Source of the DNA: a virus
Taxonomy: Duplodnaviria; Heunggongvirae; Uroviricota; Caudoviricetes
IMG/VR virus record: IMGVR_UViG_2531839474_000011
Reading direction: 5' to 3' (one strand)
DNA: 8,076 bases
Of the stretch, positions 2,852 to 8,076 are shown in pieces. Position numbers and translations under genes: made by a program. Every line of letters begins with the position of its first letter. Position 1 is the stretch's first letter. The notes under the pieces were generated by a model that saw nothing but the letters and a program-made list of their open reading frames with translations, made no database searches and had not been told where the DNA came from.

Positions 2852-2892
2852 TAGACTGGCCCCCTGAATCTCCAGACAACCAGTATCACTTA
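2852..2892. repeat. IS2 left terminal inverted repeat (IRL)
   Basis: Imperfect inverted complement of 4142-4182. Confidence 0.75.
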
Positions 2893-2942
2893 AATAAGTG
2901 ATAGTCTTAATACTAGTTTTTAGACTAGTCATTGGAGAACAG

Positions 2943-3308
2943 ATGATTGATGTCTTAGGGCCGGAGAAACGCAGACGGCGTACCACACAGGAAAAGATCG
3001 CAATTGTTCAGCAGAGCTTTGAACCGGGGATGACGGTCTCCCTCGTTGCCCGGCAACATGGTGTAGCAGCCAGCCAGTTATTTCTCTGGCGTAAGCAATA
3101 CCAGGAAGGAAGTCTTACTGCTGTCGCCGCCGGAGAACAGGTTGTTCCTGCCTCTGAACTTGCTGCCGCCATGAAGCAGATTAAAGAACTCCAGCGCCTG
3201 CTCGGCAAGAAAACGATGGAAAATGAACTCCTCAAAGAAGCCGTTGAATATGGACGGGCAAAAAAGTGGATAGCGCACGCGCCCTTATTGCCCGGGGATG
3301 GGGAGTAA
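2943..3308 (+). CDS. insC: IS2 InsC (OrfA; helix-turn-helix transposase subunit/regulator)
   Basis: 121 aa: [56 protein letters not shown]... Start ATG at 2943 is preferred over the upstream ATG at 2898 given in the ORF track. Confidence 0.9.
3260..3266 (+). other. programmed -1 ribosomal frameshift heptamer A-AAA-AAG (produces the InsCD fusion transposase)
   Basis: AAAAAAG in the insC zero frame (gcA AAA AAG tgg = A-K-K-W), at the start of the insC/insD overlap. Characteristic of IS2 and IS3-family elements. Confidence 0.75.
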
Positions 3309-4171
3309 GCTTAGTCAGCCGTTGTCTCCGGGTGTCGCGTGCGCAGTTGCACGTCATTCTCAGACGAACCGATGACTGGATGGATGGCCGCCGCAGTCGT
3401 CACACTGATGATACGGATGTGCTTCTCCGTATACACCATGTTATCGGAGAGCTGCCCACGTATGGTTATCGTCGGGTATGGGCGCTGCTTCGCAGACAGG
3501 CAGAACTTGATGGTATGCCTGCGATCAATGCCAAACGTGTTTACCGGATCATGCGCCAGAATGCGCTGTTGCTTGAGCGAAAACCTGCTGTACCGCCATC
3601 GAAACGGGCACATACAGGCAGAGTGGCCGTGAAAGAAAGCAATCAGCGATGGTGCTCTGACGGGTTCGAGTTCTGCTGTGATAACGGAGAGAGACTGCGT
3701 GTCACGTTCGCGCTGGACTGCTGTGATCGTGAGGCACTGCACTGGGCGGTCACTACCGGCGGCTTCAACAGTGAAACAGTACAGGACGTCATGCTGGGAG
3801 CGGTGGAACGCCGCTTCGGCAACGATCTTCCGTCGTCTCCAGTGGAGTGGCTGACGGATAATGGTTCATGCTACCGGGCTAATGAAACACGCCAGTTCGC
3901 CCGGATGTTGGGACTTGAACCGAAGAACACGGCGGTGCGGAGTCCGGAGAGTAACGGAATAGCAGAGAGCTTCGTGAAAACGATAAAGCGTGACTACATC
4001 AGTATCATGCCCAAACCAGACGGGTTAACGGCAGCAAAGAACCTTGCAGAGGCGTTCGAGCATTATAACGAATGGCATCCGCATAGTGCGCTGGGTTATC
4101 GCTCGCCACGGGAATATCTGCGGCAGCGGGCTTGTAATGGGTTAAGTGATAACAGATGTCTGGAAATATAG
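3266..4171 (+). CDS. insD: IS2 InsD (OrfB; DDE transposase catalytic domain, rve/integrase core)
   Basis: 301-aa ORF in the -1 frame relative to insC, starting [20 protein letters not shown]... and ending ...[31 protein letters not shown]. The in-frame start codon at 3266 is GTG. Confidence 0.9.
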
Positions 4172-4182
4172 GGGCAAATCCA
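4142..4182. repeat. IS2 right terminal inverted repeat (IRR)
   Basis: Imperfect inverted complement of IRL; ends ...TATAGGGGCAAATCCA at 4182. Confidence 0.75.
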
Positions 4183-4583: not shown

Positions 4584-4763
4584 TTAGCTTTTTTCGTTGC
4601 CTTCGCGTTCTTTATTAATTTTGACAAAATCGTTTTTACCACGCTCTCCAAATACGTCTTTAGAGTCGTTGTATCCGCAATCGCAGCACACATAATCATC
4701 AGACCATCCACGCATTGTTTTTTCTTTTGCAATATTTCCAGAACCGCATTTTGGACAAGACAT
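4584..4763 (-). CDS. small Cys4 zinc-ribbon protein (59 aa), function unknown
   Basis: MSCPKCGSGNIAKEKTMRGWSDDYVCCDCGYNDSKDVFGERGKNDFVKINKEREGNEKS with CxxC...CCxC. Strong GGAGG Shine-Dalgarno 7 nt upstream of ATG 4763; the longer 70-aa version starting at 4796 has none. AT-rich local composition. Confidence 0.55.
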   Translation of the reverse strand: MSCPKCGSGNIAKEKTMRGWSDDYVCCDCGYNDSKDVFGERGKNDFVKINKEREGNEKS

Positions 4764-4859
4764 ATCACTACCTCCAAAGCATGAGAGAGATGACAACGTA
4801 ACATTGATTGGAGATTAACAATAGATTGCTGATGTAAAAGATATGTATAAGCTTAGCTA

Positions 4860-5507
4860 TCAAAGAGGAGGTTCTGGTAGTTGCATCCAGTCGGTTACAT
4901 TGCGACTCTGTGTTTCGAAAAATTCATCACCATTGCGGACAATATCGAAAAACTCTCCGTCTCGATATTGCGCATAAAGAACGAATGCGCCATCACATAA
5001 AATAATTACGTGCTGACCATCATCTGGCATTAGCTCACTACAGCTTATCCAACCATCCGGAGTTACCGGAGAGTTGCCGGGTTCTTTAATGTGCAAACGA
5101 GGCTCACCATCTTTTGGTTCAGGCCACTGACGCTCCATGTTGATCTTCAATTTATTTTCCATAGCAGCGGTAATTTCAGCATCACTGATACCGGCACGGC
5201 GCTGTGCATCCCACAACAGGAACTGCATATCAGCCCACTCGCTGAGATCGTCAGGTTCGGCTGCGGCTTCCAGAGCCTCTTTTGAGAGGTGTTTCAGTGG
5301 ACCAATGGGGCCAACGCAGCCAAATGTGGAGTCAGACCATTTGGCATGCTCGTGGCGAACCCGCTCGCGTTCCAGTGAGGCGAGAGCGATTTTAAATGCT
5401 GTAAGCATGTGTGCTTGATCGTTATCGAGTCCGAATGGCATTTCATCTCGTGCTGACTCAATACTGGTAATCGTATTTTGTAGCCATTCCATGGTAAAAG
5501 TGCTCAT
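4860..5507 (-). CDS. 215-aa phage accessory protein; two-domain architecture resembling the DUF550/DUF551 class found near Ea22-like genes (unverified)
   Basis: ATG overlaps the upstream stop in an ATGA junction (5504-5507). Acidic N-terminal region; C-terminal region GWISCSELMPDDGQHVIILCDGAFVLYAQYRDGEFFDIVRNGDEFFETQSRNVTDWMQLPEPP. The domain assignment is from memory only. Confidence 0.65.
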   Translation of the reverse strand: MSTFTMEWLQNTITSIESARDEMPFGLDNDQAHMLTAFKIALASLERERVRHEHAKWSDSTFGCVGPIGPLKHLSKEALEAAAEPDDLSEWADMQFLLWDAQRRAGISDAEITAAMENKLKINMERQWPEPKDGEPRLHIKEPGNSPVTPDGWISCSELMPDDGQHVIILCDGAFVLYAQYRDGEFFDIVRNGDEFFETQSRNVTDWMQLPEPPL

Positions 5508-5875
5508 CGTAAAATATCCTCTATACTGGTAAGCCCTTCATTATTTAGCCAGATCATTGCGTCATCCGGCAACTTGCTGTCTGGTTTTGCGTTTTTGAGA
5601 GAGGAACTCAGTCGCTTAATCCACATTGTCAGCTCAGTAATGCGCCTGTGTTTGCCTTCCAGCTCAACGCGCAGCCTCCCTACCGTTAGTGCAATATCCT
5701 CGTTCTCCTTGTCGCGGCGTTTGATGTATTGCTGGTTTCTTTCCCGTTCATCCAGCAGTGCCAGCACAATCGATGGTGTTACCAGCTCATGGAAAAGGTC
5801 CGCGTCAAATCCCCAGTTGTCATGCATTGCCTGCTCTGCCGCTTCACGCAGTGCCTGAGAGTTAATTTCGCTCAC
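5504..5875 (-). CDS. Ea22-like protein, short variant (123 aa)
   Basis: N-terminus MSEINSQALREAAEQAMHDNWGFDADLFHELVTPSIVLALLDERERNQQYIKRRD resembles the lambda Ea22 N-terminus from memory. The rest is predicted coiled coil and the protein is shorter than lambda Ea22 (182 aa). GTG start with GAGAGG Shine-Dalgarno; GTGA overlap with the upstream stop. Confidence 0.7.
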   Translation of the reverse strand: MSEINSQALREAAEQAMHDNWGFDADLFHELVTPSIVLALLDERERNQQYIKRRDKENEDIALTVGRLRVELEGKHRRITELTMWIKRLSSSLKNAKPDSKLPDDAMIWLNNEGLTSIEDILR

Positions 5876-6093
5876 TTCGAACCTCTCTGTTTACTGATAA
5901 GCTCCAGAACTTCCTGGCAACTTGCACAAGTCCGACAACCCTGAACGGCCAGGCGTCTTCGCTCATCTATGGGATCGCCACACTCACAACAATGAGTGGC
6001 AGATATAGCCTGGTGGTCCAGGCGGCGCATTTTTATTGCTGTGTTGCGCTGTAATTCTTCAATTTCTGATGCTGAATCAATGATGTCTGCCAT
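5872..6093 (-). CDS. DksA/TraR-family C4 zinc-finger protein (73 aa), TraR-like RNA polymerase secondary-channel regulator
   Basis: MADIIDSASEIEELQRNTAIKMRRLDHQAISATHCCECGDPIDERRRLAVQGCRTCASCQEVLELISKQRGSK. CxxC-x14-CxxC spacing and 73-aa length, as in F-plasmid TraR and the lambda TraR homolog. Confidence 0.8.
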   Translation of the reverse strand: MADIIDSASEIEELQRNTAIKMRRLDHQAISATHCCECGDPIDERRRLAVQGCRTCASCQEVLELISKQRGSK

Positions 6094-6142
6094 CTTTCAT
6101 TAATCCCTGAATTGTTGGTTAATACGCTTGAGGGTGAATGCG

Positions 6143-6169
6143 AATAATAAAAAAGGAGCCTGTAGCTCC
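6143..6169 (-). terminator. putative intrinsic terminator (GGAGC-TACAG-GCTCC + TTTTTTATTATT)
   Basis: 5-bp GC-rich stem with a long T-run on the minus strand, in the 98-nt gap between the 93-aa ORF and the TraR-like gene. Confidence 0.35.
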
Positions 6170-6191
6170 ATGATGATTTTGTTTTTCATGC

Positions 6192-6473
6192 TCACCGTTC
6201 CTTAAAGACGCCGTTTAACATGCCGATCGCCAGGCTTAAATGAGTCGGTGTGAATCCCATCAGCGTTACCGTTTCGCGGTGCTTCTTCAGTACGCTACGG
6301 CAAATGTCATCGACGTTTTTATCCGGAAACTGCTGTCTGGCTTTTTTGATTTCAGAATTAGCCTGACGGGCAATGCTGCGAAGGGCGTTTTCCTGCTGAG
6401 GTGTCACTGAACAAGCCCCATGTCGGCAAGCATAAGCACACAGAATATGAAGCCCGCTGCCAGAAAAATGCAT
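6192..6473 (-). CDS. hypothetical protein (93 aa), start uncertain
   Basis: ORF MHFSGSGLHILCAYACRHGACSVTPQQENALRSIARQANSEIKKARQQFPDKNVDDICRSVLKKHRETVTLMGFTPTHLSLAIGMLNGVFKER. No clear Shine-Dalgarno at the ATG, which lies 10 nt after the orf63 stop, so coupling is possible. An alternative GTG start at V23 has a GGGG motif upstream. Confidence 0.45.
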   Translation of the reverse strand: MHFSGSGLHILCAYACRHGACSVTPQQENALRSIARQANSEIKKARQQFPDKNVDDICRSVLKKHRETVTLMGFTPTHLSLAIGMLNGVFKER

Positions 6474-6483
6474 TCAGTGGTTG

Positions 6484-6675
6484 TCATACCTGGTCTCTCT
6501 CATCTGCTTCTGCTTTCGCCACCATCATTTCCAGTTTTTGTGAAAGGGATGTGGCTAACGTATGAAATTCTTCGTCTGTTTCTACTGGTATTGGCACAAA
6601 CCTGATTCCAATTTGAGCAAGGCTATGTGCCATCTCGATACTCGTTCTTAACTCAACAGGAGATGCTTTGTGCAT
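6484..6675 (-). CDS. orf63: lambda Orf63-like protein (63 aa)
   Basis: [69 protein letters not shown] Shine-Dalgarno. Size, 28-nt overlap with the upstream gene and position relative to exo match lambda orf63. Confidence 0.7.
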   Translation of the reverse strand: MHKASPVELRTSIEMAHSLAQIGIRFVPIPVETDEEFHTLATSLSQKLEMMVAKAEADERDQV

Positions 6676-6830
6676 ACAGCCCCTCGTTTATTATTTATCT
6701 CCTCAGCCAGCCGCTGTGCTTTCAGTGGATTTCGGATAACAGAAAGGCCGGGAAATACCCAGCCTCGCTTTGTAACGGAGTAGACGAAAGTGATTGCGCC
6801 TACCCGGATATTATCGTGAGGATGCGTCAT
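6648..6830 (-). CDS. orf60a: lambda Orf60a-like protein (60 aa)
   Basis: [63 protein letters not shown] at 6830 forms an ATGA overlap with the exo stop, as in lambda. The ORF-track start two codons upstream (6836) is an alternative. Confidence 0.7.
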
Positions 6831-7507
6831 CGCCATTGCTCCCCAAATACAAAACCAATTTCAGCCAGTGCCTCGTCCATTTTTTCGATGAACTCCGGCA
6901 CCATCTCGTCAAAACTCGCCATGTACTTTTCATCCCGCTCAACCACGACATAATGCAGTCCTTCACGCTTCATACGCGGGTCATAGTTGGCAAAGTACCA
7001 GGCATCTTTTCGTGTCACCCACATGCTGTACTGCACCTGGGCCATGTAAGCCGACTTTATGGCCTCGAAACCACCGAGCCGGAACTTCATGAAATCCCGG
7101 GAGGTAAACGGGCATTTCAGCTCAAGGCCATTGCCGTCACTGCATAAACCATCGGGAGAGCAGGCGGTGCGCATACTTTCGTCGCGATAGATGATCGGGG
7201 ATTCAGTAACATTCACGCCGGAAGTGAATTCAAACAGGGTTCTGGCGTCGTTCTCGTACTGTTTTCCCCATGCCAGCGCCTTAGCATTAACTTCCGGAGC
7301 CACACCGGTGCAAACCTCAGCCAGCAGGGTGTGGAAGTAGGACATTTTCATGTCAGGCCACTTCTTTCCTGAGCGGGGCTTGGCTATCACGTTGTGAACT
7401 TCTGAAGCGGTGATGACGCCGAGCCGTAATTTGTGCCATGCATCATCCCCCTGTTCGACAGCTCTCACGTCGATCCCGGTACGCTGCAGGATAATGTCCG
7501 GTGTCAT
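6827..7507 (-). CDS. exo: lambda exonuclease (Red-alpha; 5'-3' dsDNA exonuclease)
   Basis: 226 aa, [69 protein letters not shown]...[11 protein letters not shown]. Recognised as lambda Exo. ATGA overlap with the bet stop. Confidence 0.95.
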
Positions 7508-8076
7508 GCTGCCACCTTCTGCTCAGTGGCTTTCTGTTTCAGGAATCCAAGAGCTTTCACTGCTTCGGCCTGTGTCAGTTCTGACGATGCGCGAATGTCG
7601 CGGCGAAATATCTGGGAACAGAGCGGCAATAAGTCGTCATCCCATGTTTTGTCCAGGGCAATCAGCAGAGTGTTAATCTCCTGCATGGTTTCATCGTTAA
7701 CCGGAGTAATGTCGCGTTCCGGCTGACGTTCTGCGGTGTATGCGGTATTTTCGACAATGCGCTCGGCTTCATCCTTGTCATAGATACCAGCAAATCCGAA
7801 GGCCAGACGGGCACACTGAATCATGGCTTTATGCCGTAACATCCGTTTGGGATGCGACTGCCACGGCCCCGTAATTTCTCTGCCTTCGCGGGTTTTGAAT
7901 GGTTCGCGACGGCATTCATCCATCCACTCGGTAACGCAGATCGGATGATTACGGTCCTTGCGGTAAATCCGGCATGTACAGGATTCATTGTCCTGCTCAA
8001 AGTCCATGCCATCAAACTGCTGGTTTTCATTGATGATGCGGGACCAGCCATCAACGCCCACCACCGGAACGATGCC
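7504..8076 (-). CDS. bet: lambda Bet (Red-beta single-strand annealing protein), C-terminal 190 codons; 5' end lies beyond the window
   Basis: In-frame to the window edge, ending ...[26 protein letters not shown] with TGA at 7506-7504. Matches the lambda Bet C-terminus from memory. The ATG at 8064 in the ORF track is internal. Confidence 0.95.

Follow-up and report, generated by a model that had tools for sequence, protein, structure and literature searches.

Does the small open reading frame between the orf61-like and ea22-like genes of a lambda-like prophage encode an RNA polymerase (RNAP) regulator of the TraR type, and would it be expressed with the early-left genes? We addressed these questions in an 8,076-nt stretch of DNA (the window) that corresponds exactly, in reverse complement, to the last 8076 nt of scaffold JH659569.1 in assembly GCA_000261145.1. 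Based on sequence identity, motifs, fold, synteny, coupling geometry and purifying selection, the reading frame is very probably a natural allele of lambda orf73, a gene for a TraR-family RNAP regulator, in a lambda-like prophage of E. coli integrated at att-lambda beside ybhC.

The orf73 gene and its prophage setting

Read on the minus strand from right to left, the gene order is bet-exo-orf60a-orf63-orf61-orf73-ea22-like-pyrophosphohydrolase/DUF551-zinc-ribbon-114-aa gene-xis-int-attL-ybhC. The phage genes all share a single strand, like those of the lambda pL operon, and the integration site is the lambda attachment site. That orf73 is present confirms the identity of the window as the early-left arm, attL-proximal, of a prophage of the lambda type at ybhC. 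The scaffold ends within bet, probably because repeated lambdoid DNA broke the assembly there. The features around orf73 were as follows:

7504..8076, minus strand: bet, truncated where the window and the scaffold end; the rest of the operon lies further upstream, beyond view
6827..7507, minus strand: exo (lambda exonuclease)
6648..6836, minus strand: orf60a (DUF1317), containing a hairpin at 6766..6744
6484..6675, minus strand: orf63 (DUF1382), called by Pfam
6192..6473, minus strand: orf61-like gene, long 93-aa form, matching phrog_303 over its full length; upstream neighbour of orf73
5504..5875, minus strand: ea22-like gene, 123 aa (Pfam Ead_Ea22, 77 bits against a cut-off of 27), lambda-like for approximately its first 75 codons and divergent thereafter
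4860..5507, minus strand: dATP/dGTP pyrophosphohydrolase-DUF551 gene, 215 aa, overlapping the ea22-like gene by ATGA at 5507..5504; absent in lambda
4584..4796, minus strand: zinc-ribbon reading frame, 59 aa from the MSCPKCGSGN start, with sub-threshold Pfam matches
2853..4182: IS2 (orfA 2898..3308, orfB 3266..4171), interrupting the 3' end of the 114-aa gene (phrog_1229)

In orf61, the A-run near 6343..6348 has one A fewer than that of lambda, which removes the lambda frameshift and early stop, and the first 10 codons of lambda are lost through a G-to-T change (CACGGA to CACTGA). That lambda Orf61 is truncated with respect to Stx phages has already been noted (PMC8614690). In relatives, PGAP calls a 71-aa version. 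The zinc-ribbon reading frame scored 22 bits against the Lar restriction-alleviation family, for which the cut-off is 28.6, and is named 'Eag protein' by RefSeq in a relative. Finally, IS2 lies between xis and this Lar-like gene, approximately 49 nt before the end of the 114-aa gene, with about 5-6 nt duplicated at the junction. The prophage that bears it may be decaying.

The gene itself is delimited by the following signals:

5872..6093, minus strand: orf73 coding sequence, 73 codons with an ATG start and a TGA stop; allele of lambda orf73 and TraR homolog
6104..6108, minus strand: AGGGA, a Shine-Dalgarno-like element read from the sequence, 10 nt before the ATG of orf73
5872..5875, minus strand: GTGA stop/start overlap of orf73 and the ea22-like gene (TGA at 5874..5872, GTG at 5875..5873)
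5882..5887, minus strand: GAGAGG, Shine-Dalgarno element of the ea22-like gene, within the 3' end of orf73 and 6 nt before the GTG

The product of orf73, as translated from the window, is MADIIDSASEIEELQRNTAIKMRRLDHQAISATHCCECGDPIDERRRLAVQGCRTCASCQEVLELISKQRGSK. In the lambda imm21 record, ribosome-binding sites are annotated at the place equivalent to AGGGA and at the same place as GAGAGG, and the GTGA junction is identical in lambda. Translation of the ea22-like gene would be coupled to that of orf73 through this overlap. The preliminary description had proposed a 73-aa reading frame coupled by GTGA to an Ea22-like gene, and both elements held up: the frame runs from ATG to TGA on the minus strand at 5872..6093, the GTGA lies at 5875..5872 on the same strand, and the downstream gene is recognized as Ead_Ea22.

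At the protein level, 70 of the 73 residues are identical to those of lambda Orf73 (96%) in a gap-free alignment, the differences being N26D, V49A and D62V. All three are at positions that vary in a 46-homolog alignment, in which A49 is the family consensus. The D26/A49/V62 allele would be expected to behave as lambda Orf73 does. The surrounding DNA (1.2 kb) is 96.5% identical to lambda 30177-31121. The lambda alignment extends from orf63, across orf61 and orf73, as far as the first ~225 nt of ea22, where it breaks off. While orf73 is unannotated in the lambda RefSeq record, the lambda imm21 record annotates it as a 'DksA/TraR C4-type zinc finger domain-containing protein' with a 4-nt overlap with ea22.

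The identical protein was indexed in 102 blocks of a public collection and corresponds in RefSeq to WP_000763360.1, a 'TraR/DksA family transcriptional regulator'. Four nucleotide alleles of orf73 yielded a pN/pS of 0.14-0.34, which indicates selection on the protein. A pseudogene or chance reading frame was rejected based on the identity to lambda Orf73, the 102 indexed blocks, the pN/pS values, and the Pfam and PHROG matches. Indeed, orf73 in the window is an already known gene, present as an intact and ordinary copy.

Family, motifs and predicted fold

Profile searches placed the protein in the DksA/TraR family. It scored 35 bits against Pfam zf-dskA_traR (PF01258; cut-off 24.9) and matched phrog_54 ('DksA-like zinc-finger protein') with an E-value of 6.5e-25. 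NCBIfam TIGR02419 (C4_traR_proteo) was matched over profile positions 1-64 of 64 with an E-value of 4e-15. The score of 56.1 bits is just short of the curated cut-off of 59.7, with no feature missing. The score against the equivalog model for F-plasmid TraR, NF010268, was 24.8 bits, far below its cut-off of 108, and the window protein is therefore a homolog of TraR and not an ortholog of the conjugative-plasmid protein.

Conservation was evaluated in an alignment of 46 sequences, made up of the window protein and 45 full-length homologs that are 57-96% identical. D6, A8, E12, S31, C35, R46, C56, Q60, E64 and L65 were invariant among the 46, and D3, C38, R47, C53 and C59 were at least 90% conserved. 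The N-terminus, M-A-D3-I-I-D6-S-A8, contains the DxxDxA motif and aligns to D3, D6 and A8 of TraR. Similarly, C35, C38, C56 and C59 align to TraR C37, C40, C58 and C61, and the basic pair R46-R47 aligns to TraR R48, which contacts the rim helices, and R49, which contacts beta' Si3. The C-terminal helix that contacts beta Si1 in the TraR family is present, with E64 aligned to TraR E66. A lack of the acidic tip residues had been named beforehand as evidence against a TraR-type protein; both D3 and D6 are present.

The zinc-finger assignment required one refinement. The protein has six cysteines, of which C35, C38, C56 and C59 form the expected CxxC-17-CxxC arrangement and C36 and C53 are additional. 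The C4 zinc finger of the preliminary description is thus better described as 'C4 plus two'. Among the 46 homologs, C53 belongs to the positions conserved to at least 90%, and position 36 is variable (C, I, E, G, A, S or V).

We then evaluated the fold using an AlphaFold2 model built on the 46-homolog alignment. Its mean pLDDT was 77.6, and approximately 88-90 over residues 31-70, with helices at residues 5-25, 44-49 and 57-70. The best Foldseek match was RNAP-bound TraR (6n57_M; probability 1.00, TM 0.54, E-value 1.9e-3), followed by 5w1s_M, YbiI and DksA. The modest E-value is expected for an extended 73-residue protein. The rmsd to TraR was ~5 A, and a published model of free lambda Orf73 shows the same kind of helix-angle difference (PMC8614690). 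Altogether, every hallmark of TraR was recovered in this protein, namely DxxDxA, the zinc finger, R46-R47 and the acidic C-terminal helix (E64), and 6n57_M was the best fold match.

The same data bear on whether Orf73 could instead be a ppGpp-requiring factor of the DksA type or a paralog of host YbiI. PF01258 is common to DksA and TraR, and the best E-value among PDB sequences belonged to E. coli YbiI (2kgo, 1e-4), marginally before TraR. Nevertheless, the YbiI match covers residues 29-65 only, whereas TraR in its RNAP complexes (5w1s, 6n57 and others) matches residues 1-64 and provides the best structure. The YbiI-type model NF008243 gave 37 bits against a cut-off of 96. DksA proper is ~150 aa, with an acidic tip on a coiled coil; the window protein, at 73 aa, falls within the ~70-75 aa of the TraR family and has a single N-terminal helix in place of such a coiled coil. 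Further, lambda Orf73 is independent of ppGpp (PMC9239242), and the gene occupies the lambda orf73 position in a prophage. YbiI or DksA membership was accordingly rejected because of the protein length, the residues covered by the alignments and the model scores, and we consider a DksA- or YbiI-type factor exceedingly improbable relative to an autonomous TraR-type protein.

Transcription of orf73

The preliminary description had assigned the gene to the early-left pL operon. Synteny with lambda and with relatives agrees with this placement, while pL and N themselves, together with the repressor gene, lie beyond the window. As the scaffold ends inside bet, the operon membership of orf73 rests on synteny with lambda and on relatives in which the allele is identical.

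Upstream DNA is visible at seven loci with the identical allele. At six of them, a cI-like S24 repressor, cIII and kil lie upstream of orf73 and share its orientation. Five of the six contain gam-bet-exo, the remaining one (L011) having a different recombination module, and Pfam called an N gene in four of the six repressor-bearing loci. One relative with both N and the repressor (L008) matches the window at 99.97% identity across 3.9 kb and is without IS2. Another (L013) has a promoter-like site, TTGACC-17-TAAATT, between the repressor gene and N. The picture differs in E. coli Z1323HEC0477 (L004 / L012), whose att-lambda prophage encodes an identical Orf73: a deletion between gam and a ren fragment has removed N, pL and cI. 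In this strain, gam is fused to the ren fragment and followed by emrE-ybcK-ybcN-ninE-rusA (DLP12-like), the whole immunity region having gone.

Judging from synteny and from these relatives, pL and N are presumably present in the window's prophage, and pL likely controls orf73 in the source strain. By synteny, orf73 would be co-transcribed from pL with bet-exo-orf60a-orf63-orf61. A scan of 5400..6900 found no sigma-70-like promoter on the orf73 coding strand. The sole sigma-70-like match, at 6119..6148, lies on the plus strand and was at the level of shuffled sequence, and an orf73-specific promoter was rejected. The spacer preceding orf73 contains one further element:

6145..6169, minus strand (stem-loop 6169..6155): intrinsic-terminator-like hairpin GGAGC-UAC-AGGCUCC (GGAGCUACAGGCUCC) with U6 after it, located in the spacer between orf61 and orf73, 52 nt before the ATG

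This hairpin is present in the minimum free energy fold. The hairpin and its T-run are identical in lambda (~30,680), and L013 has the same element. The folding of the spacer as a whole is not unusual (z -1.48), and our claim is limited to the local hairpin. Additional terminator-like hairpins occur upstream of it, including that at 6766..6744 in orf60a. With several such hairpins upstream, one of them directly 5' of orf73, we infer that transcription of orf73 probably depends on antitermination by N and would be delayed-early.

The spacer hairpin was also evaluated as lambda tL3. We take tL3 to lie just downstream of exo, judging from the lambda segment in pKD46 (31088-33241). This position fits the hairpin at 6766..6744 in orf60a rather than that at 6169..6155, and the latter was rejected as tL3. 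A literature search on tL3 returned no name for the spacer hairpin.

Conceivably, orf73 is an intact but silent remnant in a defective prophage, cut off from pL and N, without early expression or a current role. Z1323HEC0477 shows that the identical protein can be carried without N, pL and cI. In the window, IS2 is present at 2853..4182, the upstream part of the prophage is out of view, and orf73 is preceded by a terminator-like hairpin and by no promoter-like site on its own strand. On the other hand, the cI-like repressor and early-left genes are retained in 6 of the 7 identical-allele loci, including the 99.97% identical relative. The reading frame, ribosome-binding site and coupling overlap are intact, and the pN/pS range given above indicates selection on the protein. 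Moreover, orf73 is uninterrupted, as IS2 is inserted downstream of it in the direction of transcription. We consider a silent remnant quite unlikely, and retain expression from pL as the preferred reading.

Lambda Orf73 and other known systems

Lambda Orf73 was purified and tested by Gopalkrishnan et al. (mBio 2022; PMC9239242), and the experiments that the preliminary description had proposed, namely alignment with TraR, transcription from rrnB P1 and complementation of dksA, have thus already been published for the lambda protein. Specifically, lambda Orf73 inhibited rrnB P1 without ppGpp at an IC50 of ~50 nM, like TraR, and also inhibited rpsT P2 without ppGpp. It competed with DksA for RNAP at the DksA site, and either D3N or D6N abolished its activity. 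Once induced, it complemented a dksA null mutant on minimal medium. When expressed from pL in vivo, it decreased rrn and rpsT expression to 29% and 45%, respectively, and slowed growth. Ribosome profiling detected its expression 5-20 min after induction, and lysogens with D3A or D6A substitutions or an in-frame deletion yielded 3-4 fold less phage (all PMC9239242). A review of the exo-xis region modelled Orf73 on RNAP-bound TraR and gave the same hallmarks (PMC8614690). By analogy, the 96% identity to lambda Orf73 (PMC9239242) and the synteny support a secondary-channel regulator of RNAP in the early-left operon, as had been suggested for the window protein.

A mechanism can be proposed on this basis. 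The N-terminal helix would reach down the RNAP secondary channel, placing D3-x-x-D6-x-A8 near the active site. The globular domain, with four cysteines to bind zinc, would sit with R46 and R47 on the rim helices and beta' Si3, and the C-terminal helix would contact beta Si1. RNAP would thus be bound without DNA contact and without ppGpp, and open complexes would be destabilised at kinetically sensitive promoters such as those for rRNA and ribosomal proteins. Less ribosome synthesis would in turn slow host growth; in lambda, the corresponding gain in phage yield is ~3-4 fold.

The range of promoters affected is narrower than had been anticipated for the window protein. Reprogramming of both rRNA and amino-acid promoters had been suggested, and the first part agrees with the inhibition of rrnB P1 by lambda Orf73. 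The second part is not established, as thrABC, argI and rpoH P3 showed little or no activation by lambda Orf73, unlike with TraR (PMC9239242). Nor was transcription from the lambda lytic promoters tested increased (PMC9239242). The authors of that study suggested that the extra cysteines may account for the missing activation (PMC9239242). We give very little credence to C53 creating a different or redox-sensitive metal site in the Orf73 subfamily, which could explain repression without activation, or to the IS2-marked prophage having lost N, pL and cI, as in Z1323HEC0477, with the intact and selectively maintained orf73 driven by a different promoter and serving the host as a domesticated brake on ribosome synthesis that needs no ppGpp. 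Whether Orf73-type proteins activate any promoter is a question already posed in the literature.

The physiological role of Orf73 could also be other than the shut-off of rRNA promoters, with the lysis-lysogeny decision or a block of host replication initiation ('bin') as its main function. The exo-xis review describes orf73 and ea22 as pro-lysogenic, with deletion lowering survival and lysogenisation (PMC8614690), and orf73, ea22, ea8.5 and orf55 have been jointly implicated in inhibiting host replication initiation. In vitro, dnaA P2 was inhibited by lambda Orf73 at ~420 nM (PMC9239242). In contrast, Orf73 from a single-copy prophage caused at most a weak decrease in dnaA mRNA, whereas rrn and rpsT were decreased 2-3 fold (PMC9239242), and the clean D3A and D6A point mutants lower phage yield (PMC9239242). 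The published phenotypes conflict, in that an earlier infection study reported a lower phage yield with Orf73 and the review regards the gene as pro-lysogenic. All of the lysogeny and replication phenotypes could stem downstream from the same binding to RNAP, such that this alternative concerns the physiological role of Orf73 and not its mechanism. We regard it as rather unlikely and favour inhibition of rRNA promoters as the main role.

The significance of the locus is mainly one of correct annotation: the gene is that of a textbook phage, and biochemical and genetic work has already characterised its product. The closest known system is lambda Orf73 (alias Orf2310; exo-xis region, lambda ~30392-30613), which has the same length and the same six cysteines, including the extra C36 and C53. 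Its gene occupies the same slot between orf61 and ea22, downstream of exo-orf60a-orf63 and on the int/xis strand, and shares the GTGA overlap, ribosome-binding-site region and upstream hairpin. The two loci differ upstream, where orf61 in the window is the long, unframeshifted form, and downstream, where ea22 in the window is a mosaic of 123 aa and the pyrophosphohydrolase-DUF551 gene replaces the C-terminal half of lambda Ea22.

F-plasmid TraR (PDB 5W1S, 6N57/6N58 and 6PSQ-6PSV) also has 73 aa. The alignments proposed in the preliminary description were consistent with its assignment, at ~31% identity to TraR and 70/73 to lambda Orf73. The DxxDxA motif (residues 3-8), CxxC-17-CxxC, the RR pair and the acidic C-terminal helix of TraR all align with the window protein, and the mutagenesis of D3 and D6 in lambda Orf73 indicates that TraR and lambda Orf73 share a mechanism (PMC9239242). 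TraR is encoded in a tra operon and activates promoters. The window protein, in contrast, belongs to a phage early operon and has two extra cysteines, and lambda Orf73 activates thrABC, argI and rpoH P3 little or not at all.

E. coli DksA belongs to the same PF01258 family, and shares with lambda Orf73 the binding site on RNAP and the class of inhibited promoters. However, DksA has 151 aa, an acidic tip on a coiled coil and a need for ppGpp for full activity, and the window protein is half its size. Finally, E. coli YbiI (PDB 2KGO) has only the zinc-finger core in common with the window protein (window residues 29-65, E-value 1e-4).
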